Assembly (NCBI GenBank): GCA_047639455.1 | Contig: JBLINS010000002.1 | Coordinates: 226 to 64,225, forward strand | Direction: 5' to 3' | DNA: 64,000 bases | Source: Candidatus Omnitrophota bacterium | Lineage (GTDB): Bacteria > Omnitrophota > Gorgyraeia > 2-02-FULL-51-18 > JAGOUK01 | In this document: in pieces, positions 3 to 41,081 of the stretch | How the letters are laid out: each line of letters starts with the position of its first letter | Position numbering within the stretch: the stretch's first letter is position 1 | Translations under genes and position numbers: made by a program | Notes under the pieces: model-generated | What the model saw: the letters and a program-made list of their open reading frames with translations, nothing else | The model's database searches: none | What the model was told of the DNA's origin: nothing

Positions 3-3000
3 ATGTCAGAATTAGCTGCTCTGGATTCGGAGGTATTATATTCCTTAGCAAGAACCCAAGATGAGCAATCGCTATGGTTGTTATCCGACAACCTCAAGCT
101 TTTAACCAATCTCATCGACTTCAAATTACAAAGTGAAGACTATACCCAAATCATTTCTAGAAAAGATGTTTTTGACATCACGAAGATTGCCGGGTTTATG
201 AATCAAAAAATACTAGAATTAAAAGATTATCAAGAAAAAGCCCTATTCCTAAAGAATGACTTCAAAGATATTATTAAGTCAGCGCAAAAGTTTTATGAAT
301 TAACTTTAACGAGAGATCAGGCCTTTATTCAAAATGCGATCAAGAAAATAGAGGCAGACGATAATGAAGCGTCAATAATGATAACCGGCGGGTATCATAC
401 CCCCAATTTAAAAAAACAACTCAAGGCCCAGAATATGTCATTCATATCTTTAACGCCTACAGTAACGCATGAGACCAACCGCCCACTTTACGAAGAGCTG
501 CTCCTCAATCAAAGCGTTAGAATCACATCGCCCAATAACGCTAATTCCATGTCATTACTTCCAGTCAGAATGACTAATTCTCCATTATCGTTCTCGACAC
601 TGGCCGGAGAATTAAATGTGGATGTTTTGAGTAGTTTGATTGAGAGTTCGAGAATGGCGGATTATGTGGGTGAGTTTGATGATGGGAAGACCATGAAGGC
701 CGGTACGAGGGCTTATTCTTTTGAGGGGGGCTTGGGCGAGTTAAATAAAGAGTATTGGAATATGTTGAATGAAGAGGATCAGGTTAATATACACATATTA
801 CTTTCGCAGAATGCTGCTAATGAGGAAAATAAACGTTCTTATGTTTATGAATTAATTCATCCGTTTAAGTGGAACCGGATCATGATAACGGAGGTTCAAA
901 TCAAAGGTTTTTATGTGAATCAATCCCAAACACCCGAGAGCCATGCGGGGAGGGGGAATGTTACTGCGAATCTCTTTGGTCCATCAAATCCTGATCCTGA
1001 GGGTGGACTAACACAAAAAGGCGCTGTTAATGAACATAGAATAGCAACTCAATTCTATGCCGATCACAAGCCTCTAAATGGAACTTTCTTAAAAGTGCCT
1101 TTAGGATGGGGCACATTCCCAAATATCAATTATAAAGATCAGCCCTTGGGGTTTGTCATTATGGGTACGCCTAAATTCATGACACGTCGCATGAAAGTAG
1201 AGGACATGATTTTTGGCAAGATATTAGATGGCCTATATCTCAATGGTTTGGGTTTGCGCGACCTACACAATTCAGGTATTGGACATGGATTTTATCATCC
1301 TGGGAATATGTCTTATAATTTGATAGACACTCCCAGCTCAACGGCCGATGTCAATTTGGCTGGCATTCATGATCTTGATAGTGCCTTTTGGCTTGAAGAA
1401 AAAGCGACTCAAAACAAAACCACTGTTGAGCGCATTATTATGGCGGATTTAATATATGCCTTAGTGCAGCTAGTCGATTTATCTGCCGATATAAAACGAA
1501 TGGATGAAAGCGGTTTAATTAATGCCAAAACAATAATAGATGCCTTTTTAGAAGGTTATTTTGCCTACCTTGATGACGACGAACATATAGACGAGGTAGT
1601 TAATAACTCAGCTCGAATTTTTGTAGATTATTATGATTTTCATGTGACTCAAATGAGGATCCTGAAACGTGATTCAGATAAGGTATTAGCATTCTTGCCA
1701 ACCTATCAAAAATTCATTTCTACTCAAACAGATTTACGCCTAATCAATCTCGCCGAAAAAATAATCGGCCTTTATTTGGGCGCCAGACTAAGCGCAAGAA
1801 CACCCAGCACCAATCCCATCTCAGACCAAACCATCAACCAAGCGCCCAATCCTTTTGGAGTTAGGATGGCGGAGGATGAGGACTTGAATTTGTTTGGTCA
1901 AATGGCTAAGTATTATTGGGAAGAACACTTTCCATCTTCTGTGCAATGGCATGTGGCGGGTACATTGGGAGCTTTGGCAGCTATGGATATTGATGAAATA
2001 AGGTCTATGAATATGGAAACCTTCTTGTACAAGCTAGGTGATTCTCTCAAGATAAAAGCCGTGATTTTGGACAAAGACAATAGGCGCCAAATAATGGATG
2101 CTTATGAGGCTAAATTTGGGGTGGCTTTTGAAGATATGGACACCTTGGTCAAAAATATTTACACCGATGTCACTGGGCCCGAAGAACCTAATGCGGCAGC
2201 GCTTTGGCAATTAAAGCATTATGTTCAGGCTATTCGCAGTAATATGCACGACGCCTTGAATAGCACGACTATATCCCTCGATCTCTTCGGTCATATCGAG
2301 ATTATTATGAGCATGCGCAAGTCACCTTATAAAAAAGAGCTCTTAGATTATATGCAAGGAGTGGGGGACATTCTTACTAGTCATTTTGACATACAGCCAG
2401 GGGTGGAGACTTATATTGTTTTTAATCGCGACATGATGATTCAGCAGCATATGTGGCAAAAGTCTATTGGCGTTGTTATGTTTGCTCAGCGCATCGCACA
2501 GAACTTACATGAGTTGGATGATGCTTTTGAATATCATTATCGCTTGTCAGGCCCGGAGGTGATTAAATTAGAGCTATTATTTGCTTTTGCCTTAGGCGGT
2601 CAAGAATTTGTGGAAGAAACCATTCACTTACAAAGACGCTTACACCAAAGACTTCGTCGATCTTATGACGGTAGTAACGAGACGGTGAGTTTGGAAGACG
2701 TTTTTCGATCAGCTCAGAAGGGTGAATTATTAAAGGAATTTGGTATCACGCCTTTTGTGGATGGGCGCGCTATTCAATGGTCCAATTATTGGGCTAAAGT
2801 TCAAGCGGATGATTGGGAATCCTCTCAGCGCGAAGATTGGGGGCGTGTTAAATCGTTGGCTTTAGATGTGATTAGTTCCAAAGAGGATGGCAATCCACTA
2901 CCTACGCTTGTGCTTGGTGGTAGCCGTGATCAATTTGAAGCCCTATCTTTAATGCAATCATTGCCGGATTCATCATTGGCCCATGTCATGCAAGCAAGTC

Positions 3001-6000
3001 GAGCACATGCATTGGCTCCGCAATCGGACTCAGGTAATTCGAATGGTGGCCAAATTACTTATTTAAGAGTTTCGCCAGAATTATTAACACGCCATGATTT
3101 TGAAGAGTCGAGGCCCCGCGTTGCGATTGCTTTTCAATCCATTGAACACACACCCATTGAAGAGGTATTGAGCACGCTATACCATGTGGGTGAGGATGAC
3201 TTAGAAATGCTGTGGGTAGTTGTTCCATGGGATTCAGATAATGCTTTTGAACGTCGCCAAATGATGCAGCACTTGGATGCCGATGTCGCGATAGCCCAGT
3301 TTGGCATTGATTATTTGAAAGGTGACTTAGACGACGTCGACTTTATCCAAGCATTGAATCGAATCCAGCAAGGATTAAATTCGTTTGGATTAGATGATGA
3401 GCGAGCTCAGCGCTTTGAGTCAGACATAGCGTCAATTGAGCTTGATCGCATTGAACAGGAACTCAGCGCATTACAAATTCAATTGTCAGTTTATTTGATT
3501 CCTAAGAGAGATGCTTATAGAGAACGATATAAGCCGATTACTGCTTATTCAGCGAATGCTTTTTCTGATAGGCGGGAAATACGAAAATCGTTTAGAAAGT
3601 TTGGCTTCGATGTCTCAAAAATTGAGCGTATTCAAAACGGCGACGATTCTAGTCTATTTATTGTACGAGCCAAAAAAGGCGCGGAACATAACCGTCTTTT
3701 GTATGAGGGTGATGTAGTCCAATCAGAACCGCTGACTGTACCTGACTATGCAAAACTTGTTAAGCTGCCCTCGTTTCAAATAGCAGCCCAGACTAGCCCT
3801 CCAACACTGGGGGAAAGTTCTCCTGATCCAGTTCAAGATCTTCCGCAAAAGCTTAGACGGGTGAAGTCCTTGACTATTAAAAAAGCTGATCCAATCTTAA
3901 GTGCGGACGAAGAAAGGGCTTTGCGAGGTGTGTGGCCTAATGTATTTGACGTTAACGTCAAAAATTCCAAATTAATTCAATTGTCTCAATTGGGGTTTGA
4001 GGTTTTTGTTGGAGGCAAGATTGAATTAATGAAAATGTTTTCGTCAAACTTACATAAGAATAAAATTTTTAAACAGATCAATCGTGCTGATGTGAATCGC
4101 TTAGAAAATGCGATACAAAACGTAATTGATAATTTAAGACAACATAGAGGGGACGTACCTAGAGGTCTAGAGCGAGGGCTGATTGGAGTGCGTATTGTGA
4201 ATAAAGAAGGTACCCCGTATTTACAATTCGTTTATTTGGATAATGGGCCAGGATTTGTTAATAAGGATAGCCGATCGAGAGTCCCGATATCCATAGCAGT
4301 TATTCAAGGTGAGCCTGGAGACTCACTTGGTGGCAAGGGTACAGGATTTTTGGGAGTCGGAACAACAGTCGTTGTGGGCGCAGCCGATAATATAACTTAC
4401 CGCGAGTACCACAAGAGTGAATCTTTAGAAAGCTATGAAGGATTCGAATGGAGTAAGCGCACTCAATCGGATGATGTTGTCAAAATATTTCATGATGCTG
4501 AATTACCTGTTCAAAAGAGTTTCTCAGGCGTCCAAATAATTTGGGAGGTTCAGTCTCGATTTGTTGATGGTGTGGAGCTTGAAGTTGAGGTTGATAGCGG
4601 ATCAGTTGAAGTGGCCGAGAAAAGAGTTGAAGAATTGACTGGTGGTGCAGCAGAAGCTAGCCTTCTTTCGGAAACACCCTCGCAACGTCAATCTCGACAT
4701 CAAAGATTTCGAGATAGCTTAATAAGAATGGAGATTGCTCCAGCTAAAGCTGCATTAATTGTAAATTTTATTGAGAGTGAATATATTTCGCACTTTCCTT
4801 GGTCGGTCCCATTAAAATCAATCGATTCTTTTCTGGAGCAATATATTCTCAAATTCTATTCAAATAGTTTAAGCACCTTCGTTGATGATCTGGGAGAAGT
4901 GGAGCTTCGCGAATATATTGAATCTGAAGTTGAGAAAAGTGTTTATGGAGAGGACGAGTCGGGTGACTCAATGGCTGCAAGGACGGCTGCGCCGCGTGAG
5001 GCCGAGGGCGAGAATCGGCAAGTTGTGGAGAGGGCATTGGATAGCGTGAGAAACTTGGAAGGTGTGGAAGTCATTGTCGGTGGTGTGAAGGGGGATATTG
5101 CAAGTGGGGATAAAGATGTTTTGGATATAGTCGATGAGCGTGGCTACGTTATAGAGCCTTCTCAGAAGGCAATGCAAAAGGAAGTCCATGCTCAAGGTCT
5201 TTGGCATCGTGTGGCGCATGTATATGTATTTACTCCGGACGGTCGATTGATTTTGCAAAGAAGATCTTTAGCCAAGCCTTTGTCTCCAGGCAAATTGCAA
5301 GTGTCCGCAAGTGGACGCGTGAATGCCGGAGAGTCTGCATTGGACGCTGTCCTCCGCGAAACTGAGGAAGAATTAGGCATTAACTTCTGGCCTGAAGAAT
5401 TGATTCGCATAGGCAAAGAAAATGGACTTAGACGATCGTATGATATTTCTGGTGGGGGTGCGAATAATGAATTCATCACAAGTTACGCAGTTAAACTGTC
5501 GAGTTCAGCCCAAGTAGATCAAATATCCAAAAAGTATAATTTATTAGAAACCCAAGATCTCTGGATTCTGCCTTGGGATACATTTGTGTCGACTGTAAAA
5601 AATGACAAAGACAAATCCATTTTTTCTAATAGCCTTCACGGACTTATTCACAACCCAGAATTATTGCAACAATTAACCGAGAGCCAATCGGACATGGATT
5701 CGACGAGCGGAGGGAGCTCTTTAGATGAAGATCGTGATGTTGGTGGGGTGCGGATGAGTCGGGAGGTTGAGCCGGATAGATTTTTATATCCTATGGCAGG
5801 AACATTATTTATGCAGCCAAGAGATTCAAAACGTGTGGATAAAAATTCATATGATGGTCAGTTTAGGAATGTGGGGCTAAACTTATTAGCAAACTCCGCG
5901 AATCCTATTTCAGGGTTAATTGATCAAGAGATAAAAACTAAAGGTCATATTATTGTGGCCGATATTGGAGCAGGCCGTCAATTGGCGCTAATGGAAGCCA

Positions 6001-7697
6001 AACAAGAATTTGGAGACCAGATCACGACAGTGGCAGTGGACGTGGAGAATCATTTAGAAAGGTTGCAGCCTGATTATATAAGCAATGTCGGCAAGAGGTT
6101 GGGCGTAGAATTGGACGAAACCCATCGCCCTGATTTTATACTTGCACCTTCGCGATCTGTTAAATTCAATGAACCACCAGACATCATTCTCGCTATACGG
6201 TCACTGCCATATGAAGAGGATCCGATGCTTGGATTTGAGAATCTATATAATCAATTAGCGGTTGATGGCACGTTCGTTGCCAGGTATTACCCTGATTTGC
6301 TCAAAAATTTTGATCCTTCAGGAAAAAGCAATTTTGATGAGCCTGATTGGCTATTTAAAGCGTTAACAGAATTAAAATCTAAAGGATTAATTGCCGGGGA
6401 ATTTAGAGCAGGCTTTGTTTTTATTAAAAAAATGTCAGCTAAACAAATCCGTATTAATTTGGAACGCGATGAAACGCGTATTAAAGTTCACCGAACCCAG
6501 CACAATAGCCTTGTTCGTGGAGATTATAAAATCACAGATGGCCATGAAGAGCTGGTGACTATCATTGATGATTCTAATCCACCAGGCGATGCTCCTAAAG
6601 GTGAGGCTAGGATGGCCAATCGAATTACGTCATTTTTAGATGACGAACTTGTCACGCAACATTTTGTAGATAGTTTAAAAGACTATAGTAATGCGGGCTC
6701 CGGGGATGAATTGCCAATATTCTTATATGGACTTTATTTGCAGCGGAATAAGTTCGACGGTAGGCATACGCTGCCATTAGGCTCAAGTCTCATAACACCT
6801 AAGGCGCTTCGTGATGAAAACGGAGAAATTACTTTATATTTAATGCCGGTGGGCACGCCGCTTGATCTTAGCCCGGAAGAAACCATGCTTAGCTCCATAT
6901 TCTTTGTCAAACTTAATGATGCTAGAGACCTTGTCCAAAGCTACCAGCATGATACAAAAGTTTTAGAGCAGAAATATGTACAAGGGAGTGCCGTGGCATA
7001 TCAATTAGAGCTTCGTTCAGCCCGACGAGATTTTGTTAATGATAAGCTTGGGTCAAAGGTATTTTCTTCTAAACGAACTGTGCCTAAAGCCGTTCATATT
7101 TTGGAATCCGCTTATAGTGCTGATATGGATGCCTTAGACATAGAGCAGCAACTGGATTTATTAATCCCTACATTGAAGCATATACATCAAGCGGCTCCTG
7201 AAGTGACTTTTTATTTGGACAAACGTTTTGCCCAACGCAGTTCAAGGGTTGAATACCTATTGAATAAATATAAAGTGAATGATTTTATTCACATTGGTGA
7301 CCCAATTGAATTAGCCGTGATCACGCTTGGTTCACTAGAAGCGGGTATTGGTATTCATATCGACATCAACCCAATTGAGGCTGATGAAATTCCTATGGGT
7401 TTGGCGAGCGCTCTATACCAAGGTATTGTTGAGGCAACTGCCTTAGTTGATATAGGCACACAAAAAATCGATTTTGATATAGTCGATGAAGCGGTTATTA
7501 GCGAATTAAGGCGCAGGCGCAATCAATACCTTAAAGATTCTATAGACGATAATATAACTTATTTACGTATATTAAGCGGCACGGCTCCCAAATCGTTGCG
7601 TCAAAAATTCCTATGGAGTATTGCTCAACAAATCCCCATTGAATTCATCATCCAGGCCGCGCAACGCACCATTAAATATGTGCAGAGATCTACTTAG
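3..7697 (+). CDS. Giant multidomain protein, 5'-partial (more than 2564 aa). It shares an N-terminal module with the second giant ORF and has kinase-like, GHKL-ATPase-like, NUDIX and SAM-methyltransferase-like motifs.
   Basis: Single uninterrupted ORF from the window edge to 7697. Translated motifs: HGFYHPGN...IHDLD (nt ~1290-1385), DNGPGF and GxGTGFLGVG (nt ~4238-4362), perfect Nudix box GRVNAGESALDAVLRETEEELGI (nt ~5309-5377), IVADIGAGRQ (nt ~5950-5977). aa ~125-170 are clearly homologous to aa ~485-530 of ORF 33741..41081. Confidence 0.75.
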   Translation: MSELAALDSEVLYSLARTQDEQSLWLLSDNLKLLTNLIDFKLQSEDYTQIISRKDVFDITKIAGFMNQKILELKDYQEKALFLKNDFKDIIKSAQKFYELTLTRDQAFIQNAIKKIEADDNEASIMITGGYHTPNLKKQLKAQNMSFISLTPTVTHETNRPLYEELLLNQSVRITSPNNANSMSLLPVRMTNSPLSFSTLAGELNVDVLSSLIESSRMADYVGEFDDGKTMKAGTRAYSFEGGLGELNKEYWNMLNEEDQVNIHILLSQNAANEENKRSYVYELIHPFKWNRIMITEVQIKGFYVNQSQTPESHAGRGNVTANLFGPSNPDPEGGLTQKGAVNEHRIATQFYADHKPLNGTFLKVPLGWGTFPNINYKDQPLGFVIMGTPKFMTRRMKVEDMIFGKILDGLYLNGLGLRDLHNSGIGHGFYHPGNMSYNLIDTPSSTADVNLAGIHDLDSAFWLEEKATQNKTTVERIIMADLIYALVQLVDLSADIKRMDESGLINAKTIIDAFLEGYFAYLDDDEHIDEVVNNSARIFVDYYDFHVTQMRILKRDSDKVLAFLPTYQKFISTQTDLRLINLAEKIIGLYLGARLSARTPSTNPISDQTINQAPNPFGVRMAEDEDLNLFGQMAKYYWEEHFPSSVQWHVAGTLGALAAMDIDEIRSMNMETFLYKLGDSLKIKAVILDKDNRRQIMDAYEAKFGVAFEDMDTLVKNIYTDVTGPEEPNAAALWQLKHYVQAIRSNMHDALNSTTISLDLFGHIEIIMSMRKSPYKKELLDYMQGVGDILTSHFDIQPGVETYIVFNRDMMIQQHMWQKSIGVVMFAQRIAQNLHELDDAFEYHYRLSGPEVIKLELLFAFALGGQEFVEETIHLQRRLHQRLRRSYDGSNETVSLEDVFRSAQKGELLKEFGITPFVDGRAIQWSNYWAKVQADDWESSQREDWGRVKSLALDVISSKEDGNPLPTLVLGGSRDQFEALSLMQSLPDSSLAHVMQASRAHALAPQSDSGNSNGGQITYLRVSPELLTRHDFEESRPRVAIAFQSIEHTPIEEVLSTLYHVGEDDLEMLWVVVPWDSDNAFERRQMMQHLDADVAIAQFGIDYLKGDLDDVDFIQALNRIQQGLNSFGLDDERAQRFESDIASIELDRIEQELSALQIQLSVYLIPKRDAYRERYKPITAYSANAFSDRREIRKSFRKFGFDVSKIERIQNGDDSSLFIVRAKKGAEHNRLLYEGDVVQSEPLTVPDYAKLVKLPSFQIAAQTSPPTLGESSPDPVQDLPQKLRRVKSLTIKKADPILSADEERALRGVWPNVFDVNVKNSKLIQLSQLGFEVFVGGKIELMKMFSSNLHKNKIFKQINRADVNRLENAIQNVIDNLRQHRGDVPRGLERGLIGVRIVNKEGTPYLQFVYLDNGPGFVNKDSRSRVPISIAVIQGEPGDSLGGKGTGFLGVGTTVVVGAADNITYREYHKSESLESYEGFEWSKRTQSDDVVKIFHDAELPVQKSFSGVQIIWEVQSRFVDGVELEVEVDSGSVEVAEKRVEELTGGAAEASLLSETPSQRQSRHQRFRDSLIRMEIAPAKAALIVNFIESEYISHFPWSVPLKSIDSFLEQYILKFYSNSLSTFVDDLGEVELREYIESEVEKSVYGEDESGDSMAARTAAPREAEGENRQVVERALDSVRNLEGVEVIVGGVKGDIASGDKDVLDIVDERGYVIEPSQKAMQKEVHAQGLWHRVAHVYVFTPDGRLILQRRSLAKPLSPGKLQVSASGRVNAGESALDAVLRETEEELGINFWPEELIRIGKENGLRRSYDISGGGANNEFITSYAVKLSSSAQVDQISKKYNLLETQDLWILPWDTFVSTVKNDKDKSIFSNSLHGLIHNPELLQQLTESQSDMDSTSGGSSLDEDRDVGGVRMSREVEPDRFLYPMAGTLFMQPRDSKRVDKNSYDGQFRNVGLNLLANSANPISGLIDQEIKTKGHIIVADIGAGRQLALMEAKQEFGDQITTVAVDVENHLERLQPDYISNVGKRLGVELDETHRPDFILAPSRSVKFNEPPDIILAIRSLPYEEDPMLGFENLYNQLAVDGTFVARYYPDLLKNFDPSGKSNFDEPDWLFKALTELKSKGLIAGEFRAGFVFIKKMSAKQIRINLERDETRIKVHRTQHNSLVRGDYKITDGHEELVTIIDDSNPPGDAPKGEARMANRITSFLDDELVTQHFVDSLKDYSNAGSGDELPIFLYGLYLQRNKFDGRHTLPLGSSLITPKALRDENGEITLYLMPVGTPLDLSPEETMLSSIFFVKLNDARDLVQSYQHDTKVLEQKYVQGSAVAYQLELRSARRDFVNDKLGSKVFSSKRTVPKAVHILESAYSADMDALDIEQQLDLLIPTLKHIHQAAPEVTFYLDKRFAQRSSRVEYLLNKYKVNDFIHIGDPIELAVITLGSLEAGIGIHIDINPIEADEIPMGLASALYQGIVEATALVDIGTQKIDFDIVDEAVISELRRRRNQYLKDSIDDNITYLRILSGTAPKSLRQKFLWSIAQQIPIEFIIQAAQRTIKYVQRST
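5309..5377 (+). other. Nudix box (GX5EX7REUXEEXGU) embedded in the giant ORF
   Basis: The translation GRVNAGESALDAVLRETEEELGI fits the canonical Nudix signature exactly. The upstream ...WHRVAHVYVFTPDGRLILQRR... is typical of a Nudix fold beta-strand region. Confidence 0.7.
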
Positions 7698-7976: not shown

Positions 7977-8240
7977 ATGAGCCAATCACATTCAAGAAGC
8001 GATAAACGTCATTTGAATCAAGTCATAGAAAAGAAAGCTACTCAAAAGCTGAATGCCATCCTTGCGGGGGCCATGGCTATTTTTGGTGCATTGATATGTT
8101 TAGTTATAGGTATTAGCCAAGGCTTTTCTATATACATTGCGCTCATAACCATTGTATTCGTTTTGGGCGGTATTTATTTAATGTATCGTGGATTTAAAAT
8201 CATAACCAAAGAAATAAAGGCCTTAAAAAATGAATCATAG
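7977..8240 (+). CDS. Small membrane protein (two predicted TM helices), hypothetical
   Basis: 87-aa ORF with two hydrophobic segments. AGGGG RBS-like sequence upstream. Confidence 0.4.
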   Translation: MSQSHSRSDKRHLNQVIEKKATQKLNAILAGAMAIFGALICLVIGISQGFSIYIALITIVFVLGGIYLMYRGFKIITKEIKALKNES

Positions 8241-8505
8241 TCAATATAGCCTAATCGTCATAGCCGTCCTTGTTTGCTCTATTTACGGGTCAAGTACAGT
8301 GCATGCCGCCGTTGTTAGCGATGAACGCACTAGTCTCATTTCTTCGGTTGTGGATATAGCTAAAGGTGCCAGTGATATTACAAAAGACGCCGTTAATTCT
8401 GCGTTTGGGCCAACGGGTAAATACCTAAATGACAGCACAACTATTAAAGATGAGTCTCTTCAGACTCGCCAAGCTCAAGTAAACAAGTCGACGACAACTT
8501 CTTGA
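8230..8505 (+). CDS. Small secreted hypothetical protein
   Basis: N-terminal signal-peptide-like segment (LIVIAVLVCSIYGSSTVHA). Confidence 0.4.
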   Translation: MNHSQYSLIVIAVLVCSIYGSSTVHAAVVSDERTSLISSVVDIAKGASDITKDAVNSAFGPTGKYLNDSTTIKDESLQTRQAQVNKSTTTS

Positions 8506-8512
8506 TGAGTGT

Positions 8513-8833
8513 ATGAAAAAAATATTGGCCTTGAGCCTGGCCTTAGCATCATTCACGATAATGACTCCCCAGGTTTGGTCAGCGGATCAAGTCGACTCTG
8601 CCGCCATAGGTTATCAATTGGGCTATAGTCAAGGTCAAGTTGAGCAAGTAGAGGGTATAGAGTCTCAAGACCCTAAAATCATACTAGACTCACCTATGTT
8701 TCAAGGAGGCTATCAACTTTTTGCAAATGAATATGGTCTCAATGATTCAGAATTTAGAGAGTCGTATACAAAAGGTTTTCACGCCGGTTATGCCGCTCAA
8801 GTTGACGCGAGTATTCCGCTGACCAATAATTAG
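8513..8833 (+). CDS. Small secreted hypothetical protein
   Basis: Signal peptide MKKILALSLALASFTIMTPQVWSA. No recognisable domain. Confidence 0.45.
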   Translation: MKKILALSLALASFTIMTPQVWSADQVDSAAIGYQLGYSQGQVEQVEGIESQDPKIILDSPMFQGGYQLFANEYGLNDSEFRESYTKGFHAGYAAQVDASIPLTNN

Positions 8834-9811: not shown

Positions 9812-10114
9812 ATGCACAACTATTTAATTAAGAAATTCACATTGGGCTTTATGGCACTAATAATCGCTTTGACATTATTAGTCCATGGGCCATTAAATGC
9901 TGAGGAATTAGAAGATAGTGCCGAAGTAGGTAATTCTCAATTCATCGTACAAACGGTAACGCCTCCAAATCAGGCCCTAGTGTCTATACCCATGACATCC
10001 CAAGGCGCAGTCTTTACGAGCCAAGCTAATAGGCCAGATAAGGCTTATTGGTTAGATTATTACCACCAACTCCTCGCTGACTCCCAAAAACAAGACCAAA
10101 CCACCGCAGAGTAA
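9812..10114 (+). CDS. Small secreted hypothetical protein
   Basis: 100-aa ORF with a signal-peptide-like N-terminus. Confidence 0.4.
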   Translation: MHNYLIKKFTLGFMALIIALTLLVHGPLNAEELEDSAEVGNSQFIVQTVTPPNQALVSIPMTSQGAVFTSQANRPDKAYWLDYYHQLLADSQKQDQTTAE

Positions 10115-10155
10115 TTCCTAATATCTCAAGATTAGAGTTCCATCTGTGGAGGCAT

Positions 10156-10256
10156 GCGCGTCATCATGAGCTGCGCGGAGCAAGCAGCGTAATGATCTCC
10201 CAGAGAAACCTTTTGCTGTGGGATTGTCGCGCCTGCTGCGCGGCTCACAATGACTC
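10156..10256. repeat. Dispersed short repeat (family copy 1) with an internal imperfect inverted repeat
   Basis: The core GTCATCATGAGCTGCGCGGAGCAAGCAGCGTAATGATC ... CTGCTGCGCGGCTCA closely resembles 17655-17760 and is related to the elements at 22171-22260, 33575-33630 and 59495-59630. Confidence 0.5.
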
Positions 10257-10451
10257 TAATAGACTATTAGATAGTAAATTTCTCTTAACAAATACGATTA
10301 AAAAACCAGCACTTTTCAACCTTTATGCCCAGGATGACGAACGTCACTTACTCCGCGCTTGCCACAGATTGACAAGAGTTGGTAGTGTCGGCTCTAGTGG
10401 TACAATATCTTCTGGTTTAGAGAGTATTTATATCATTGGGAGAATAGCATT

Positions 10452-10682
10452 ATGACAGAATGGCAGAAGAGTCCTTTTAAGATAGAAGTTAAAAATGGTG
10501 ACACCAAGGCTTTTTGTTTATGTGGCGCTTCACAAAACGGGCCATATTGCGATGGGTCACACCAAGGCACGGATAAAAGACCAGAAGTCATTAAATTTGA
10601 TGAAGACAAAACCATTTTTGTTTGTGGTTGCCAAAAGTCTGCCAAAGTACCATTTTGCGATGGAACACATAGTCAGTCATAA
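10452..10682 (+). CDS. CDGSH iron-sulfur domain protein (two CDGSH-type motifs)
   Basis: The translation contains CxC...CDGSH and CxC...CDGTH, the two-domain mitoNEET-like arrangement. Confidence 0.7.
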   Translation: MTEWQKSPFKIEVKNGDTKAFCLCGASQNGPYCDGSHQGTDKRPEVIKFDEDKTIFVCGCQKSAKVPFCDGTHSQS

Positions 10683-10753
10683 GCAGTCTGAATTAAGGAG
10701 TACAGAATGGGCAACGGCAATCATACCAGAAACATTAGCGCGCTAATATTCTA

Positions 10754-13573: not shown

Positions 13574-13603
13574 TATGATATAATTAACTTAGGGGTTGAG
13601 ATT

Positions 13604-13942: not shown

Positions 13943-13945
13943 TCC

Positions 13946-14365: not shown

Positions 14366-14386
14366 TATAGCTCACATTTAGCTGAA

Positions 14387-14402: not shown

Positions 14403-14488
14403 GCATTTACTTCTCTCCTCAGGTATCATCTAATCAAGGTCATTAATACGATTTTTGAAAATGAGGCTTAGTTTGTTTAGGGGGTAGT

Positions 14489-14905: not shown

Positions 14906-14908
14906 TTT

Positions 14909-33740: not shown

Positions 33741-36700
33741 TTGGGTATACTTCCTTATATGTTTATATATACGAATTCTATATATACAGTATCCCGAATA
33801 ATTAAATCTATTAGTCTATTAATCATCTTTTTGATGACTGTGGAACAATTATGCTTTGCTGCTCCCGTGGGCCAATTAGGGTCATCCTTGACACAATTAA
33901 TAGGGTCTCAGAACAAGCCTCAAACGCTCCTTTCTTTAGTGGATTTGGTTCAAAACCCAGTTAACATTAAGCCCACCTTTAAATACGCCCATGTTCAGAA
34001 TATTCATCAAGGTACGAATGGAAAATTAATCATTCATATTCAGGATGCGCATGCAAACTTTTCTGGTCAAATGAATTTGGCCAAAACTATAGATGACTTA
34101 ATGACCAAATATGGAATTAAATTGGTATTGGCAGAAGGTGGCGAAGGAGACGCTTCACTTTCAACTTTACGATCAAAAATGACCACAAGAGATATGGATG
34201 CAGCAGCTAATCGTCTACTTATGGATGGCATGATAGCTGGTCATGAATATTTGGATTTGACATCCAAACACAAAATGAAATTAGTCGGCATAGAAAATAA
34301 AGAATTGTATTTGAGCAATTTAAAGGCCTATAGCGAATTAACCCAAACAAGAAAAAAAATCACGGCTCACTTGCACAAAATAAAAGTGGCCATTCAACGC
34401 TTGAAGAACAAACTTTATTCCAAAGATATATTGGAGTTAGAGTCCATAGAGGAATTCAATAAACAATTTGAGGCTTTGCTCCAATTAAATGATGGGCGCA
34501 TTCAATTAAGCACATACCCACAAATGCAATTATTAAAGAATCTTAAATCAGAAGAAAAGCTAATTGACTTCGATAGACTTAATCTCGAAAGAGAAGCTCT
34601 TTTTGACCTATTGTCCGCAAAAGGTCAAAGCGAAGCTTTGAGGAAATTAGTCCAAGACATGAGGCAAGGCCAGTCTTCTCAAATCACACAGTCCTTTAAT
34701 ATGCGCAAGCTATTTGAATTAGCTCATCAGAATCAAATCCAAATGCAAAGATTCTACAATCTCCAAAAATACAATGATTATCTAAAAGAATTTGTCCAAT
34801 TGGATTTTAATCATCTGTTGGAAGAAGTCGATGAATTTCAAACCCTGCTCTACCAGAACTTATTCCAAGGAGAGAAAGACCCATCTATCTTGAGGGCAAT
34901 AGACGTGTATAAAGATCTTTTAGATAAAGCCACCCAAATTCAAATGACGTCACGAGAGTTTCAAACCTTTATGGCGAATGAAGAGAAATTCGACGAAGAA
35001 GCCTGGCAAGCCTTTTTGAACCAAAAGCTATTAGACTTAGAATATTACGACAATCTCATCCCTTTTAAAGAAGAACTCACCGAATTCAAGCAAAAACTAA
35101 AGAATTTTTACCGACTAGTGAACCAAAGGGATGAAGCCTTTATCCAAAATATAAGCAAAGTCCTAAACCAAGAAGATGAACAAGCGGCCTTCTTAGTAAC
35201 TGGAGGTTACCATACCCAAAACCTCACCAAGCTTGTGCAAGCAGAGGGCTACTCATTCATCACCCTAAGCCCCAAAGTCACTTCAGAAACAAATCACCAA
35301 CAATACGAATCTCTTCTACTCAAAGAATTGAACCAATCAATCTCTAGTGGCGCTCAAACAAAGTCACCCATGCAAGTCATAACCACAACCCTAGTCCAAA
35401 CCCTATCCCGCATGTCTCAAGTTCGCATCCCCGAATACGCTAGAAGATTCTCTAATGAAAGATTTGGTCAAGTTGCTCAAATGATTGTGGACCCACGAAG
35501 TGCTTCCAGGATGACTAATTATCCAAACAAGCATATATTTAATGATTACGCTTCTATGATTCAGTGGCTTAAGATTGAGTTGGGAATGGACGATGAGCAA
35601 ATTGGCGTTGTGATCGTAGATGGTCCTGCTGCTTCTGGAAAGAAAGCTGTAGCGAAACACTTGTCGGATAATGGTGAGGTTGCTCATTTCAAAATGGATG
35701 GTTTTGCGTCTCAAGCTATGAGAAACGCACTGGCTCTGGCATTAGGTTTCTTTATAGGCCCTCTCTTATTGGGTCGTTTTTTGGATCGATTCATATTGAG
35801 GTTTTTTCATGACCATGAGGCTATCTTAGATCTTAAGCAACAAATAGCACATGCTATAAAACAAGTGGAAGAATCGAATGCCGAATCCGTAGAGGTTTCT
35901 CCACAGTATGGATTCAAAAATCTGGATCCAGAGTCTGCTATCAAAGCAATGCAGGATTCAAAGCAAACTGTAAAGAAGAGCTCCACAATTATTGTTTCTG
36001 GTCTTAGGGGAAAAGAGCTTCTTGGGACGGGCATGCCTCAGCAGCAATCCATATTGGTCACAACCGATTGGAACACCACATACAATCGTTACCAGGATCG
36101 ACAGACACAAGGAAATTCAAAACAATTTTGGCCATGGGCTTTAATACGTCAATTCACTGCTAGTTTTAAGTGGGAAGAGTCTTTCTTTGCCCGACGTCAA
36201 AACGAATATGATTTTGTAATCGACTCAACCAACATCGACCGCCCTACCGTGATTGATCAAAGAAACCTAACGACTGACTCAACGAGAATGAGCCCTAACT
36301 CAGTACCATTTGAAGGTAGAGCGCGAATGTCGAATCCGAACAATGATTCTTTACCTTTACCAGCTGGTGTTGATGGATATATTGTTGATCCTGGTGCAGA
36401 GGGGTCAGGCCGTGACTTGCCGATAAGTAAAAGTGGAGCGCGGATGACGAGTTCTTCCACTGAGCATGTAGCTGAAGAGGTGCCCGACCCTTTGGCTACA
36501 GGCGAGGATGGCGCAAGCTTAGCGGAAAAAAAGAAAGTTACGGGCAAGCGACCTGGCAGGGTTAGGCAAGTAGGTCACGTACCACTTGAATCTAAGAATT
36601 TTAATTTGATTATGGAATTTATTAAGAGATATCGCAAGATTGATTCCGACACCATTGAATATTCTACTTATTTAAGGGGAATCAATCCTCTCTTAGAAAC

Positions 36701-39700
36701 ATTACGACAAGAACCCAGGGCTCGAAGAAAGGAAACCAGAGCTCTCTTAGCCTTAACAGAAGGTTTTATCCAAAAGAAAAGCCATATTCAACCCACGCTA
36801 GATGAAATCATGGCCGTTGCCGTAGCTTCTTTTTCTATACCTTTAAATTCGCACCTCTTGGTGATTTATGCTTTAACATTAAAAATGCTTGATATGACAG
36901 GCAAAGATTTACTGAATGCCCAACAAATCAGTCAATTTGAAAAAGAATTACACGCATTAGTAGATCTTTATTCTTCCAAACATCCTCAGGAGAAAAATAT
37001 TAACTTAGCAACAATCATCAGACAAATTCTCTCAATACAAATGAAGGATAGTAAATCAAACTTATTATCACAGTCGCAATGGCACTTCTCTTCTGCCCTC
37101 CAAAGCGAGTTAGCCAAAATTGAATTACAAGAAATGGGTCAAGCATTACGACACGACCCTTCTGAATCTATTGGGCGAATTCAAACCTCTCATCACGCTT
37201 TAAAATTGGGAGCTCAAAATAATCAAATTGCCAATGTCGTTGATTGGACTCATGGATTAATGAGTCAGGATCATCGGGTTCGCAGAATGATTCGATCTCA
37301 TGAAGCATCCGAAATTCCTGCTAAATCCTCAATACAAAATGCGCTTCAACCAACAGTTAATGCAGTTAATGATAATTTGGACACATTGATTTTATGGACT
37401 CTAGAAGCCCTTAAAAAAGATGACTCAAATAATCAAACACGTGATAAGAAAAAACCCTTAATCGCTCAAACTGGTGTATCTCGATATGGACTGTCCTGCA
37501 AATCTGGCTCCGCTTGCAATCAAGCTGCGGCTCGGTGGAATGATGAACACACCCTCGATGACATTCTCGAATCAAGGGAATTGTTAGAAGAATTTAGTAT
37601 GCATATTGGTCAAACAAATCAAAGCCACGCCTCATTTACGCTTAACTACGGTCAAATATACGAACATACATTGCAACGCTTAATATACTTAAGAGCTGCG
37701 GACTTTCCATTCGATGCCTCGGATTCCGATGCCGAAAGCATTTCTGCGAATCTGGATCAGATCAAGTCGTTATTGCCGAAAGAATATTTCAAGATTTATA
37801 AACTCATCGTTTCAGGTACTGCAAGCAATTCACTAAAGGCGATCCAATTAATGGAGGCTAGTCAGTGGCTGAACGAATCATTGTTAGCAGAACTGTATCA
37901 ATATATTTCCAGAGATTTATTAAGCAAGGTTTTTGTTCACCAAGATGAAGCTTCTATTGAGGAAATAAAAATAATTTCTAAAGACAATAATGATGGAATC
38001 ATAGTGAACGTTAATCCAAACGGTTTGGCCGAAGTCTTCATTGACAATAGACAATATTTTGATAATCCTCGGATGATCACGATACCATTGCCCGATCACG
38101 CTGGTTCACAAGTGAGACTAAGAGCTCAGCGCGATTCAAGATCATTCTTATGGCTACACGCATTTTCTGTGAGTGAGGACTTATTCTTAGGCCAATTCTT
38201 TTACGACTCGGAAAGGCGTGAAATGTTACATGAAAAAAAACACTTTAAGTCCAGAGTCCTCAAAGGTCATGAGGGAGTTCCTGATATGCCCGACTCGGTA
38301 CCCGTAACTATGCAGAAAAATGAAATGGGTAATTATTTTGCATTTAAATATGAGGACAAAACCTATAACCTTTCACGCCCCTATGAGGCTCGTTATAAAG
38401 GTATACGCGATGATGCTGATCTGCAAACAATTCATATACGAATCATCCGTCAGCAAAACAAGGACTATGTTTATGGCTTCTTAAATCCGGACGACGAATT
38501 AGCCTCGGATGCTTTTGCCAAATGGTTATGGGTACCCAGCAAGGACGGTGGCCGTCATCGATTTGAAGCTGAATACTTTTATGTTCCTGGAACTAAATTA
38601 TGGTTTTACCATTTACTCCGCAATAATATCACTACCTCTAGAATCTACCAGGCTAGGATTGATTTAGATGACAAAGGACAAGCTATTATTCACAAAGAAT
38701 TAAAATTACGCTTAGGGGATATGTTTAAAGGTGGGGGCCAGAATATGCCTTCAGAAGCCCTTATGACAAACACATTAGCTGACCCATCGCGCGTGGATAT
38801 TTATGATGCACCTGAATCTGAGGACAAAAAAGAAAGAGGCAGTTTTGATCCGCGTCAAATGAGATTCATTGCTAGTAAATATTATTCTAAACCTCGCAGC
38901 ATGTTCCAGCGGGATTGGCAAATCGTAACGCAAAGACATAATGAATTTCTATCAGACTCCAATCTCATAGTTCCTAACCCTGACCCCGTTGTGGTTAGAA
39001 TGCCCATTGGTGTTGATACTAGAGCCAAAACCGGTCACCCCAAGCATATTATTGATACACCCACAGGCAAGCCCATTACATTCGAAAAAACCGAACATGT
39101 TGATGAGCTTGTTATGATTCGCTTTAATCAATTCAAAATGAATGGAAGAATACAGCGTGGCATTGAGCTCATCGCGCTGTCAGAAGACTTTGTACCCAAG
39201 TTTTTGATAAGACGCGGTTATTATCACGCACCGGGTGATGAATTTAAATGGCAAAGCCCTCGCAGGAGAAAATCTTATACCATTGAAGAAAGATATCAAA
39301 TTGAAGAAGTCCTGATTCATACAGGTTATCTAGGATCCTTCGTTCATCATATGACAATCAAAGCGGATTATCTGACTCGCGAATTTGTTCAAATGGTGAA
39401 TAATGAATTGCAATTAGCTCAAATAGATGTAGAAAAAGTACTTGATGAATACAATCATGTCTTAACTGAATTGGACAAAATTAAGGCATTCCTACTCAAG
39501 CAAAATTGGGAATCTTCAGAAATGGATAAACACTTTGGCCGAATCAGTGATGTCATTAGCCCCGTTTATCGTCAAGCCATCGATCAAGTTCAAAGGAATC
39601 AGCAAACTTATCCCATTGGAACACGTGTCAGGTTTAGGCATCGCAAAGCGACTGTGGAGGGTTATCAATCAATAGAGGGTGGAGTAATTCTTATTACCCT

Positions 39701-41081
39701 AAAAATGGATGACATGAAAAGAAAGCCAAATCTTGAGGACCGCCTCGAAACCTATTCCCTAAGCTCCATAGTCGAGGAATTGCAATTTCTTCCCATTCAA
39801 CAGCACCCAACCCAATCAGACACCACCACTCACCCGCCCTCGAATGATGACCACGCAAGATTAGCCGCACCGCAGTTAACTTCATCTGAGGATTCAGGCC
39901 CCAACTTGGCTACATTTGATAGCAGAGCAACAAGATTAGCTGGTTCTAATAGCATTTCTAAGAAATCAATTGTTGGAGAGGATATCTTTAAGCAAATATT
40001 ATTAGCTGTGGATTTGGATTTACCGGTGAGGGGGGCTTTGGTGCCGGAATTGAAGTCTTTGTTTGTGCGGTGGTTTGGCCGGGCACGTGTAGAAGAGGAT
40101 GTTTATGCGATTGGTCATTCTGGTAATCGCTTTTCTCGGGTGAGGATATATTCTTTGGGAGCTAAAGGCTACCATGTATTGGATGAGGTGACGGGTGAGC
40201 GTCTTAATATTTCTTTGGAAGAAATAGCGGCTTATAGATTGGATTTGAAGAAGAATGGTTCACAACCAGAGTCAATTATGCAAAGACTAGGAGATGCCGA
40301 CTTTAGTTATAATGCCTTGGAATTGAAGTCTAGTATTAAACGGTCTCTAGCTCTTCTTAGACAAGGCATTGGGGTTGTGGCCGCATTACCTAAAAAGCTA
40401 GTGCGTTTTAAGATGGTGACTGATTTTGCGAGCATTAAATCTGCTATTGGGCAGAATATGGAATATTTGTATGTGATGAGTGAGGATAGGCGTTTTAGTC
40501 AAAGAGCGTCACATGTCTTTATTGGAACCGTTGAGGACCAATTGGCATTGGATGCGTATAGAGAGAACTTGGATGGAGATGCGGACTTCTTAGGCTTTGT
40601 GAATCAAATTCAAATTGTGGGTTTGGCGGATATTCTACGTAATTATGATGTCAATTCTAGTCCTCGAATTGTCTTTGCGAGCACACCCAAAAGTTTTGAA
40701 CGGGCTTATGCTTCGAATAAGGACTTTAGACGCTTAGTGGACGTGGATTTGGTTTCAATAGCGCCTACCAGCGCGGCAGCGAATAATGAGCTATTGGATA
40801 TGCTGAATTTATTGAATACAGCTGATATATTGGCTCATTGGGCACAATTATCACAAGAAGAGCAAGCTGAGCATCAAGTGCATATTGGACGCTATCTGAA
40901 ACGTGCTTATCAAATTGATGGGTCTAGAGAGCATATTGATTCCCTAAGCTATGCTTCAGGCTTTGAGGAAGACACACACTGGTATCAACGGATTAGCTTG
41001 CCACCCTTAGGGCGCTATGTGGATGCTATATTTCATAGCTTTATTCCCACGATTCGCAATGCTGTATTGGCCTCAGCTTAG
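33741..41081 (+). CDS. Giant protein (2446 aa) with an N-terminal signal/TM segment, a module shared with the first giant ORF, and a Walker-A-like motif
   Basis: Uninterrupted 7.3-kb ORF with a hydrophobic N-terminus (IIKSISLLIIFLMTVEQLCFAAPVG). aa ~440-530 are homologous to the start of ORF 3..7697 (FLVTGGYHTQNL...FITLSPKVTSETNHQQYESLLL). GPAASGKK at nt 35622-35645. Confidence 0.8.
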   Translation: MGILPYMFIYTNSIYTVSRIIKSISLLIIFLMTVEQLCFAAPVGQLGSSLTQLIGSQNKPQTLLSLVDLVQNPVNIKPTFKYAHVQNIHQGTNGKLIIHIQDAHANFSGQMNLAKTIDDLMTKYGIKLVLAEGGEGDASLSTLRSKMTTRDMDAAANRLLMDGMIAGHEYLDLTSKHKMKLVGIENKELYLSNLKAYSELTQTRKKITAHLHKIKVAIQRLKNKLYSKDILELESIEEFNKQFEALLQLNDGRIQLSTYPQMQLLKNLKSEEKLIDFDRLNLEREALFDLLSAKGQSEALRKLVQDMRQGQSSQITQSFNMRKLFELAHQNQIQMQRFYNLQKYNDYLKEFVQLDFNHLLEEVDEFQTLLYQNLFQGEKDPSILRAIDVYKDLLDKATQIQMTSREFQTFMANEEKFDEEAWQAFLNQKLLDLEYYDNLIPFKEELTEFKQKLKNFYRLVNQRDEAFIQNISKVLNQEDEQAAFLVTGGYHTQNLTKLVQAEGYSFITLSPKVTSETNHQQYESLLLKELNQSISSGAQTKSPMQVITTTLVQTLSRMSQVRIPEYARRFSNERFGQVAQMIVDPRSASRMTNYPNKHIFNDYASMIQWLKIELGMDDEQIGVVIVDGPAASGKKAVAKHLSDNGEVAHFKMDGFASQAMRNALALALGFFIGPLLLGRFLDRFILRFFHDHEAILDLKQQIAHAIKQVEESNAESVEVSPQYGFKNLDPESAIKAMQDSKQTVKKSSTIIVSGLRGKELLGTGMPQQQSILVTTDWNTTYNRYQDRQTQGNSKQFWPWALIRQFTASFKWEESFFARRQNEYDFVIDSTNIDRPTVIDQRNLTTDSTRMSPNSVPFEGRARMSNPNNDSLPLPAGVDGYIVDPGAEGSGRDLPISKSGARMTSSSTEHVAEEVPDPLATGEDGASLAEKKKVTGKRPGRVRQVGHVPLESKNFNLIMEFIKRYRKIDSDTIEYSTYLRGINPLLETLRQEPRARRKETRALLALTEGFIQKKSHIQPTLDEIMAVAVASFSIPLNSHLLVIYALTLKMLDMTGKDLLNAQQISQFEKELHALVDLYSSKHPQEKNINLATIIRQILSIQMKDSKSNLLSQSQWHFSSALQSELAKIELQEMGQALRHDPSESIGRIQTSHHALKLGAQNNQIANVVDWTHGLMSQDHRVRRMIRSHEASEIPAKSSIQNALQPTVNAVNDNLDTLILWTLEALKKDDSNNQTRDKKKPLIAQTGVSRYGLSCKSGSACNQAAARWNDEHTLDDILESRELLEEFSMHIGQTNQSHASFTLNYGQIYEHTLQRLIYLRAADFPFDASDSDAESISANLDQIKSLLPKEYFKIYKLIVSGTASNSLKAIQLMEASQWLNESLLAELYQYISRDLLSKVFVHQDEASIEEIKIISKDNNDGIIVNVNPNGLAEVFIDNRQYFDNPRMITIPLPDHAGSQVRLRAQRDSRSFLWLHAFSVSEDLFLGQFFYDSERREMLHEKKHFKSRVLKGHEGVPDMPDSVPVTMQKNEMGNYFAFKYEDKTYNLSRPYEARYKGIRDDADLQTIHIRIIRQQNKDYVYGFLNPDDELASDAFAKWLWVPSKDGGRHRFEAEYFYVPGTKLWFYHLLRNNITTSRIYQARIDLDDKGQAIIHKELKLRLGDMFKGGGQNMPSEALMTNTLADPSRVDIYDAPESEDKKERGSFDPRQMRFIASKYYSKPRSMFQRDWQIVTQRHNEFLSDSNLIVPNPDPVVVRMPIGVDTRAKTGHPKHIIDTPTGKPITFEKTEHVDELVMIRFNQFKMNGRIQRGIELIALSEDFVPKFLIRRGYYHAPGDEFKWQSPRRRKSYTIEERYQIEEVLIHTGYLGSFVHHMTIKADYLTREFVQMVNNELQLAQIDVEKVLDEYNHVLTELDKIKAFLLKQNWESSEMDKHFGRISDVISPVYRQAIDQVQRNQQTYPIGTRVRFRHRKATVEGYQSIEGGVILITLKMDDMKRKPNLEDRLETYSLSSIVEELQFLPIQQHPTQSDTTTHPPSNDDHARLAAPQLTSSEDSGPNLATFDSRATRLAGSNSISKKSIVGEDIFKQILLAVDLDLPVRGALVPELKSLFVRWFGRARVEEDVYAIGHSGNRFSRVRIYSLGAKGYHVLDEVTGERLNISLEEIAAYRLDLKKNGSQPESIMQRLGDADFSYNALELKSSIKRSLALLRQGIGVVAALPKKLVRFKMVTDFASIKSAIGQNMEYLYVMSEDRRFSQRASHVFIGTVEDQLALDAYRENLDGDADFLGFVNQIQIVGLADILRNYDVNSSPRIVFASTPKSFERAYASNKDFRRLVDVDLVSIAPTSAAANNELLDMLNLLNTADILAHWAQLSQEEQAEHQVHIGRYLKRAYQIDGSREHIDSLSYASGFEEDTHWYQRISLPPLGRYVDAIFHSFIPTIRNAVLASA

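Follow-up and report, generated by a model that had tools for sequence, protein, structure and literature searches.

Giant proteins of the Omnitrophota, including a 'multi-enzyme metabolic cluster' class, have been described in two studies (West-Roberts et al. 2023, bioRxiv 10.1101/2023.11.21.568195; Nielsen & Lui 2026, bioRxiv 10.64898/2026.06.07.730766). Cleavage of these proteins was suspected in the first, with 'no information about cleavage points'. Here we analyse two very large open reading frames (ORFs), ORF1 and ORF2, in a stretch of 64,000 nucleotides from contig JBLINS010000002.1 of a Candidatus Omnitrophota bacterium (the window). The two are paralogues in a family that is very large and unannotated, comes from Omnitrophota-type metagenome-assembled genomes (MAGs) and has long members that join an N-terminal module to payload units marked off by a short peptide motif. 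The family and the described giants share the phylum, a signal peptide (putative here) or membrane association, and a repertoire of NUDIX, HATPase_c, methyltransferase, PGM/PMM, starch-synthase and kinase domains. The giants of those two studies comprise at least 10–30 thousand residues, whereas the family as sampled spans 0.4–7.5 thousand; the class 1 length of at least 10,000 aa (Nielsen & Lui 2026) is reached neither by ORF1 (>2639 aa) nor by ORF2 (2446 aa) nor by any sampled member (at most 7482 aa). The TIKI-like module, junction motif and C-terminal tail reported below are mentioned in neither paper.

The MARTX and clostridial toxins are secreted proteins of several thousand residues with arrays of unrelated units, a description that would also suit the present family. 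Processing sites in MARTX and clostridial glucosylating toxins are Leu residues in unstructured inter-effector segments, for example EGAL↓GED (PMC2900308). In those toxins a built-in protease cuts a hydrophobic-then-small site in the linkers, whereas in the family such cleavage is our proposal. The MARTX protease is a cysteine protease domain (C80), while that of the family would be of TIKI type and at the N-terminus; instead of the RTX repeats and type I secretion signal of MARTX toxins, the family has a putative Sec-type signal peptide and a distinct C-terminal tail, and its units look metabolic or regulatory and not cytotoxic. Viral polyproteins resemble the proposed arrangement in that one ORF yields several proteins through short junctions read by an encoded protease, but the family is chromosomal in a cellular organism, has many paralogues and a secretion signal, and would use a different protease fold.

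The TIKI superfamily, to which we compare the module, is defined by a parallel sheet core and a 2His/2Glu site (PMC6254334). It holds Tiki1/2, RRSP, TraB/PrgY/GumN, EreA-C, BcR135/136, ChaN, HopBA1 and PMT C1/C2. As a rule the members are extracytoplasmic or secreted, and they include several site-specific endopeptidases. RRSP is one of these, with its 2His/2Glu site at E3900-x-H3902, E3930 and H4030; the corresponding His-Glu pair of BcR135 is H85/E113 (PMC6254334). TIKI1 trims eight N-terminal residues off Wnt3a (PMC8191133).

A conserved N-terminal module in ORF1 and ORF2

Both ORFs were found on the + strand where the original prediction had placed them, with the peptides it quoted. ORF2 corresponds to a deposited protein of 2415 aa as deposited (P0028), and ORF1 is 100% identical to another (P0021, 2639 aa, flagged 'partial'); the deposited organism name of both is 'Candidatus Omnitrophota bacterium'. 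A BLASTP comparison of the two gave a single significant alignment, of aa 33–172 in ORF1 with aa 393–534 in ORF2 (38% identity over 143 aa, E = 2e-24); the remaining pairs were all noise, none better than E of about 1. The homologous block noted previously is therefore real, but the ~100–150 aa assigned to it are merely the visible C-terminal part of a module of ~480 aa (ORF2 aa ~60–540), and homologues of ORF2 aa 1–560 align end to end. The expectation that the N-terminus of ORF1 is missing is likewise borne out: by alignment to ORF2, the window copy lacks about 360 residues and the contig copy about 285. Turning to the sequence upstream of the window, as had been suggested, leaves ORF1 incomplete, for the deposited contig (64,993 bp) stops 75 codons upstream and P0021 adds just 75 N-terminal residues. 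The two ORFs and their module features are listed below.

3..7697, + strand: ORF1, giant family member with its 5' end lost at the contig edge; 2564 aa inside the window
3..518, + strand: ORF1, C-terminal third of the TIKI-like module (aa 1–172), including the second putative catalytic His motif TGGYHT at nt 384–401 (BLASTP, alignment)
33741..41081, + strand: ORF2, complete giant family member; 2446 aa from the first possible start
33759..33860, + strand: ORF2, likely genuine start (ATG at 33759) with a putative Sec-type signal peptide of basic n-region, h-region of ~12 aa, SISLLIIFLMTV, and C-F-A↓A-P cleavage-type site (family alignment, h-region statistics, by eye)
33918..35360, + strand: ORF2, TIKI-like module (aa ~60–540), alpha/beta core with a helical insertion of ~290 aa (aa 187–478, nt 34299–35174) (alignment, AlphaFold2)
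34032..34058, + strand: ORF2, first putative catalytic motif IHIQDAHAN, D102 and H104 invariant (family alignment)
34128..34142, + strand: ORF2, LAEGG motif with invariant E132, 28 residues past H104 (family alignment)
34287..34301, + strand: ORF2, GIENK motif with invariant G183 and E185 (family alignment)
35199..35216, + strand: ORF2, second putative catalytic motif TGGYHT, with G488, G489 and H491 invariant (family alignment)

A profile search against 1.84 billion cluster representatives returned 9,386 representatives of the module family at E ≤ 1e-3 and 5,896 at E ≤ 1e-30. The module starts at most ~80 residues from the N-terminus in 150/150 best hits, and these hits are 383–7,482 aa long (median near 2,200), in agreement with the idea of one constant module attached to very different payloads. 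Many homologues are stand-alone secreted proteins of ~480–500 aa, and others are extended, for example with a protein kinase. The search of related genomes for further module proteins, proposed with the original prediction, was also productive: in a scan of species-representative genomes the module was confirmed in 319 stretches. These come mostly from Omnitrophota/Omnitrophica MAGs, and also from 'uncultured Planctomycetia' (a coarse label) and one 'Ca. Eisenbacteria' MAG.

Module genes are present in several copies per MAG and form tandem arrays in some genomes. Two neighbouring family genes, encoding proteins of ~2,490 aa, occupy 9995–25752 of locus L001, and three lie in a row at 2–21456 of locus L080; each of the five has the signal peptide, the module, the motifs and the AA/SA tail described below. 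At 10001–12706 of locus L002, a gene for a stand-alone module (P0010, 507 aa) precedes one for a 384-aa signal-peptide protein that has a HELYE stretch and no Pfam match and could act as a partner or substrate of that module. Split pairs of module-only genes and module-less payload genes in L021, L068 and L080 were rejected as candidates; they are really single genes broken by masked N runs.

The putative active site of the module is fully conserved. Across 168–172 family representatives with pairwise identity of at most 50%, residues D102, H104, E132, E185, G488, G489 and H491 are each 100% invariant. The two His motifs highlighted in the original prediction are found within this set, HIQDAHANF at aa 99–107 and TGGYHT at aa 487–492 of ORF2. 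The spacing of 28 residues between H104 and E132 equals that between H85 and E113 in BcR135 and between H3902 and E3930 in RRSP. Judged by motif order and spacing, a 2His/2Glu-type motif thus appears to be present (D-x-H, E, H, the first acid being Asp).

Models of the module were obtained with AlphaFold2, with a mean confidence (pLDDT) of 84 for ORF2 aa 1–560 and 82 for aa 60–640. They show an alpha/beta core in which strands bear IHIQDAH, LAEGG, GIE and, much later in the chain, FLVTGGYHT. The central parallel beta-sheet ringed by helices is superposable on known TIKI members, with the constellation of two His and two acidic residues on equivalent strands. The figures listed in the two columns of the fold comparison were 10.0 and 8.3 for BcR135 (2rad), 9.5 and 7.8 for EreC, 9.5 and 8.4 for HopBA1, 9.2 and 8.4 for a TraB family protein, 9.1 and 8.1 for BcR136 (2qgm), 8.7 and 8.9 for ChaN, and 7.4 and 8.0 for RRSP; PMT scored 7.3 in the first column and is not listed in the second. 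The fold comparison alone ties the module to the superfamily. The module departs from the described members in having Asp for the first Glu (D-x-H) and an extra invariant Glu (E185), in the ~290-aa helical insertion that splits its core, in heading proteins of several thousand residues, and in giving no profile match to the Pfam or NCBIfam models of the superfamily. The earlier guess of a Tiki/TraB/GumN/ChaN relationship finds support in the fold and the active site, given the invariant residues, which comprise both His motifs together with E132 and E185, and the spacing of 28 residues shared with BcR135 and RRSP.

Family N-termini have a basic n-region followed by an uncharged stretch whose median length is 12 residues (interquartile range 11–13). 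After this h-region comes a small-x-small site, which reads [S/G/C/A]-F-A↓A-P in long members and S-Y-A↓E in stand-alone ones. The module has the look of a conserved enzyme preceded by a cleavable signal peptide. As deposited, ORF2 begins at the ATG at 33834 and loses the hydrophobic segment kept in all homologues; the signal peptide requires a start at or upstream of the ATG at 33759, with this ATG and the TTG at 33741 as the likelier candidates.

Junction motif, payload units and C-terminal tail

The junction motif of the family is the pentapeptide G-A-R-[L/M]-A, with x-[A/V/S/T]-R-M-[A/S/T] as the prevailing form in the window. The 441,879 aa of 172 fetched family proteins contain 515 copies of GAR[LM][AST], where 4.5 are expected and controls with permuted order give 1–8. 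The 40 commonest 5-mers beyond the module are without exception variants of the motif, led by GARLA (274) and GARMA (122), and the linkers of one homologue (P0022) hold eleven copies of GARLA or GARLS. The first site lies directly past the module (median aa 576), and further sites follow at a median spacing of 254 aa (interquartile range 113–423). Stand-alone modules have zero junction motifs. In 1.2 Mb of related loci together with the window, the motif reaches 1.71 per 1000 aa in module ORFs versus 0.04 in the 367 non-module ORFs that are complete; the 12 ORFs that are rich in the motif but have no module are all cut by a locus edge or continue across masked N runs. Codons at the sites vary synonymously at each position (Leu is written TTA, TTG, CTA, CTC and CTT), and selection therefore acts on the peptide.

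ORF1 and ORF2 each hold 5 copies of [AVST]RM[AST] where 0.15–0.18 are expected, a number reached in 0 of 500 shuffles, and in the 41 remaining window ORFs (12,456 aa) this pattern stays at chance level. The window sites sit within linkers rich in P, S, T, N and G:

561..575, + strand: ORF1 junction PVRMT (aa 187–191)
645..659, + strand: ORF1 junction SSRMA (aa 215–219)
1779..1793, + strand: ORF1 junction GARLS (aa 593–597), canonical family form
1857..1871, + strand: ORF1 junction GVRMA (aa 619–623)
5745..5759, + strand: ORF1 junction GVRMS (aa 1915–1919)
6603..6617, + strand: ORF1 junction EARMA (aa 2201–2205)
35403..35417, + strand: ORF2 junction LSRMS (aa 555–559), first past the module
35502..35516, + strand: ORF2 junction ASRMT (aa 588–592)
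36279..36293, + strand: ORF2 junction STRMS (aa 847–851)
36318..36332, + strand: ORF2 junction RARMS (aa 860–864)
36435..36449, + strand: ORF2 junction GARMT (aa 899–903), canonical form
39852..39866, + strand: ORF2 junction HARLA (aa 2038–2042)
39927..39941, + strand: ORF2 junction ATRLA (aa 2063–2067)

The choice of Leu or Met at the fourth motif position is nearly all-or-none within a protein, with 21 L and 0 M in P0105 and 0 L and 10 M in P0164; ORF1 and ORF2 both have mostly M. A literature search for GARLA and GARMA returned nothing relevant.

The segments delimited by the motif match free-standing enzymes in size. In four relatives, 10 Pfam domains were checked and none has a junction site inside it; the motif lies between all 10, at domain-size spacing. 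P0132 (4731 aa) carries adenylate kinase, phosphoenolpyruvate carboxykinase (PEPCK), class V fructose-bisphosphatase (FBPase) and the 60-aa RNA-binding regulator CsrA, and P0130 (4870 aa) carries HATPase_c, histidine phosphatase, RelA/SpoT and an HD domain, the units in both being framed by GARLA. Segment lengths are 94 aa for the CsrA unit, 254 aa for the adenylate kinase unit and 596 aa for the PEPCK unit of P0132, 280 aa for the His_Phos_1 unit of P0130 and 481 aa for the UDPGP unit of P0022. The CsrA unit opens exactly at the motif (...SGAR/LALVLARK...). Across the relatives, payload domains include UDPGP, PGM/PMM, starch synthase, LOG, PEPCK, adenylate kinase and FBPase, as well as CsrA, RelA/SpoT, HD, histidine phosphatase and protein kinase; the payloads that can be identified are metabolic or regulatory enzymes and not toxin domains. 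By Pfam, no C39, S8, C80, RTX-repeat or type I secretion domain was found in ORF1, ORF2 or the scanned relatives.

The payloads of the window ORFs are less readily identified. Whereas relatives bear 4 distinct enzyme Pfams each, the NUDIX domain of ORF1 is the sole significant Pfam domain in either window payload. A search of the motif-delimited segments at E ≤ 1 added only weak HATPase_c and P-loop hints, and a word-indexed search found no homologues of either payload except for the last 365 aa of ORF2, which are 55% identical to P0048. The recognizable payload features are these:

4089..4358, + strand: ORF1, weak HATPase_c-like stretch (aa 1363–1452; E 0.009–0.09, sub-threshold Pfam)
5205..5477, + strand: ORF1, NUDIX hydrolase domain (aa 1735–1825; Pfam E 3e-10 to 1e-11)
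5955..5981, + strand: ORF1, glycine-rich VADIGAGRQ, resembling motif I of S-adenosylmethionine (SAM) methyltransferases by eye only (Pfam negative)
35622..35645, + strand: ORF2, Walker-A-like GPAASGKK in an inter-junction unit of 254 aa, NMP-kinase/AAA_18-like (E 0.003–0.1, below threshold)

The NUDIX domain is the reason for the misleading name 'isopentenyl-diphosphate isomerase' under which P0021 was deposited. We reject this name, as the match scores 44 bits against a cut-off of 127 and misnames a multi-unit protein of >2,600 aa.

A third part of the family signature is found at the C-terminus. Among long family proteins, 107 of 131 end in Ala (57 in AA, 38 in SA), and the anchored tail has the consensus L(-15)..A(-12)R(-11)[L/M](-10)..L(-8)[R/Q/K](-7)A(-6)[V/I](-5)[G/A](-4)x[A/S](-2)A(-1). 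Of the 22 module ORFs in the genome loci that end at a genuine stop, 16 have the [AS]A ending, as do 7 of 8 N-terminally cut motif-rich ORFs, compared with 9 of 354 other ORFs. The pattern suggests an amphipathic C-terminal helix ending in [A/S]-A-COOH. The two window tails differ in how well they conform:

7590..7694, + strand: ORF1, C-terminal tail, last 35 aa (...IAQQIPIEFIIQAAQRTIKYVQRST; ...IKYVQRST), loose fit, ending in ST and not in [AS]A
40974..41078, + strand: ORF2, C-terminal tail (...ISLPPLGRYVDAIFHSFIPTIRNAVLASA-COOH; ...IRNAVLASA), clear fit with A(-6) V(-5) x x S(-2) A(-1)

The description of the two ORFs as otherwise unrelated thus holds for alignable sequence but needs qualifying, because the head, the punctuating motif and in part the tail are common to both.

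Genomic setting

The neighbours of ORF1 and ORF2 in the window encode GlmU, Prs, L25, Pth, S6, SSB, L9, DnaB, BamA, Skp, LpxD/C/A/I/B, FabZ, GlnA, MsbA, UbiD, a prolyl oligopeptidase and a Crp-type regulator. As these are ordinary chromosomal genes of a diderm bacterium, the two ORFs lie outside any obvious island. Immediately 3' of ORF2, after 94 nt, a 293-aa TPR protein (TPR_12/TPR_10) is encoded, followed by a DsbD-thioredoxin fusion (41175–43271). TPR domains recognise short peptide motifs and C-terminal tails, and this protein could be a partner of the junction motif or of the tail. Directly 3' of ORF1, at 7977–8833, are three small unannotated ORFs (87, 91 and 106 aa) whose N-termini are hydrophobic or resemble signal sequences. 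No recognisable immunity family was seen among these genes, those past ORF2 being the TPR protein and DsbD and those past ORF1 the small membrane or secreted ORFs.

Window ORFs of at least 150 aa are nearly all on the + strand, with 7 of 47 on the − strand, several of them overlapping + genes. The cumulative GC skew climbs monotonically over 1–64000, and the window looks like part of one replichore with strongly co-oriented genes. ORF1 has a strongly positive GC skew (up to 0.24 over 2001–6000). ORF2 has a negative GC skew (−0.02 to −0.03) and a strongly positive AT skew (0.09–0.14) over 34001–40000. The strand composition of the two ORFs therefore differs markedly, and that of ORF2 also departs from the rest of the window.

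Interpretation of the family architecture

We propose that these giant proteins would be exported through Sec as polyproteins, and that the N-terminal TIKI-like endopeptidase, acting from the same protein, from a paralogue or in trans from a stand-alone copy, would cut the junction motifs and free the individual units. We infer export, hydrolytic activity and the use of the motif as a cleavage site read by the module. This account of autoprocessing is the most economical one because the active site is invariant, the motif is limited, in the sampled loci, to proteins with the head, the sites start directly past the head, and they frame units at native termini. Among systems of known function, the MARTX and clostridial toxins come nearest to it. 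The cut made by Tiki1 in Wnt3a reportedly falls between Leu and Ala.

We assign autoprocessing by the TIKI-like head a probability of roughly 0.4, since cleavage is inferred and both an AlphaFold2 model of the linker and a covariation analysis gave nothing. In the model of the module with the first 100 linker residues, the junction motifs are not confidently placed (pLDDT 45–63), and no clear module column covaries with the choice of Leu or Met at the motif. Several further results weigh against the proposal. Pfam at E ≤ 0.1 and NCBIfam returned no match for the module, a PDB profile search matched no member of the TIKI superfamily, and a Foldseek search against the PDB gave nothing significant (best E 0.13), with Ere, ChaN and HopBA1 among the weak matches; there was likewise no match to the family profiles PF01963 (TraB_PrgY_gumN), PF04187 (ChaN) and PF05139 (erythromycin esterase). 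Of the checks put forward with the original prediction, the profile searches were thus negative while structure prediction did yield a TIKI-like fold. The similarity of the predicted fold to the superfamily is moderate, and since the superfamily also holds esterases (Ere) and the haem-binding ChaN, a protease is one option only. The N-terminal pattern was judged by eye and from the length of the h-region to be that of a cleavable Sec signal and probably not a membrane anchor. Should it be a real signal peptide, units dependent on ATP, UTP or SAM would find themselves outside the cytoplasm, which needs a further explanation. At the motif itself, hydrophobic residues are just mildly depleted in the flanks, and ~20% of long members (P0023, P0024, P0025, P0040, P0042, P0045, P0051 and P0059 among them) hold 0–1 canonical motifs. 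In these low-motif members AGSRA, GSRV and GAKLA/AAKLA are weakly enriched, which suggests that the junction code has lineage-specific variants.

The head and motif could instead belong to an uncut multi-enzyme scaffold, exported or tethered to the membrane, in which the motif is a hinge or a docking element for a partner, the module or the envelope, while the head acts on an external substrate, as a peptidase or esterase directed at the envelope of prey, or binds a ligand like ChaN. Stand-alone modules of ~500 aa occur without a motif-bearing payload, published views of Omnitrophota giants lean towards surface-attached effectors, a TPR protein of the type that binds peptide motifs is encoded directly past ORF2, and the recurrence of part of the motif as A(-12) R(-11) L(-10) within the C-terminal helix fits recognition better than cutting. 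CsrA, adenylate kinase and PEPCK are, however, normally free and often oligomeric, the motif frames units at their native termini, and a hinge alone would not demand five specific residues kept among members less than 50% identical; we regard such a scaffold as somewhat doubtful. The junctions might also be cut by another protease of bacterial, host or prey origin, such as an Arg-specific serine protease, with the head unrelated to the event. An invariant Arg with a hydrophobic and a small residue would suit many endopeptidases, neither covariation nor AlphaFold2 docking linked module and motif, and C39 and S8 peptidase domains were noted in other Omnitrophota giants by West-Roberts et al. Since the motif is strictly tied to module ORFs in the sampled loci, the first site always lies directly past the module, the active-site residues of the module are invariant, and ORF1, ORF2 and the scanned relatives lack C39 and S8 domains, we think this unlikely.

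The original prediction had read the common block as a module for delivery or anchoring, as in polymorphic toxins and giant effectors; in such a system a constant N-terminal trafficking or anchoring domain would bear swappable C-terminal toxins. The constant head and the hypervariable, often orphan payloads are indeed found, as are several paralogues per genome, at times in tandem, and Omnitrophota are considered host-dependent or predatory. The remainder of that picture fits poorly: the head holds an enzyme active site and occurs in stand-alone form, the payloads are strings of several units of metabolic character where a single C-terminal toxin would be expected, no known toxin Pfam or immunity-like neighbour was seen, and the conserved C-terminal tail is not predicted by that architecture, so that we consider it very improbable. 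It is harder still to credit that the R-M sites are internal translation starts and that each giant ORF is read as several proteins. Several window sites do read GGAG...AGGATG, and NGG Arg codons precede ATG at 5 of 10 sites versus 21% overall. Yet Leu is found at 74% of family sites and Phe at some, the Leu codons of P0022 include TTA, CTA, CTC and CTT alongside one TTT (Phe), none of which can initiate translation, and the Gly, Ala and Arg codons vary freely; the internal-start reading was rejected on the Leu and Phe codons. That the long ORFs are assembly or annotation artefacts, which the original prediction had allowed for, has practically nothing left to recommend it. ORF1 does reach the contig end and several related loci contain N runs, but the frames remain uninterrupted across 7 kb and carry conserved signatures at start and end, and an artefact is excluded because the same architecture repeats across thousands of proteins assembled independently and 319 genome stretches.

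Taken in full, autoprocessing would make these Omnitrophota proteins a hitherto unrecognised class of bacterial polyproteins, Sec-exported strings of housekeeping-type enzymes and regulators (PEPCK, adenylate kinase, FBPase, CsrA, RelA/SpoT, UDPGP and NUDIX among them), cut by a TIKI-like head at a universal G-A-R-[L/M]-A, with the tail as a second recognition signal and the units maybe rewiring host or prey metabolism or working in the periplasm; we hold this complete picture to be possible rather than probable. If export is real, the presence of nucleotide-dependent units outside the cytoplasm is a problem common to every reading, and we speculate that it points to delivery into a host or prey cell, which would agree with the lifestyle proposed for the phylum.

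New here are a pentapeptide, enriched more than 100-fold relative to what composition predicts, that frames enzyme-sized units and is strictly tied, in the sampled loci, to a head with an invariant TIKI-type active site, and a family of >9,000 sequence clusters for which neither Pfam nor NCBIfam has a model. The motif can serve as a rule for splitting giants into units for structure prediction and annotation, and it flags mis-annotations such as that of ORF1. The giant multi-enzyme proteins of the Omnitrophota are a recognised puzzle, and the motif is a concrete candidate for the missing cleavage code. If the proposal is correct, it would be the first such code for these proteins and would reveal a new proteolytic role of the TIKI fold.

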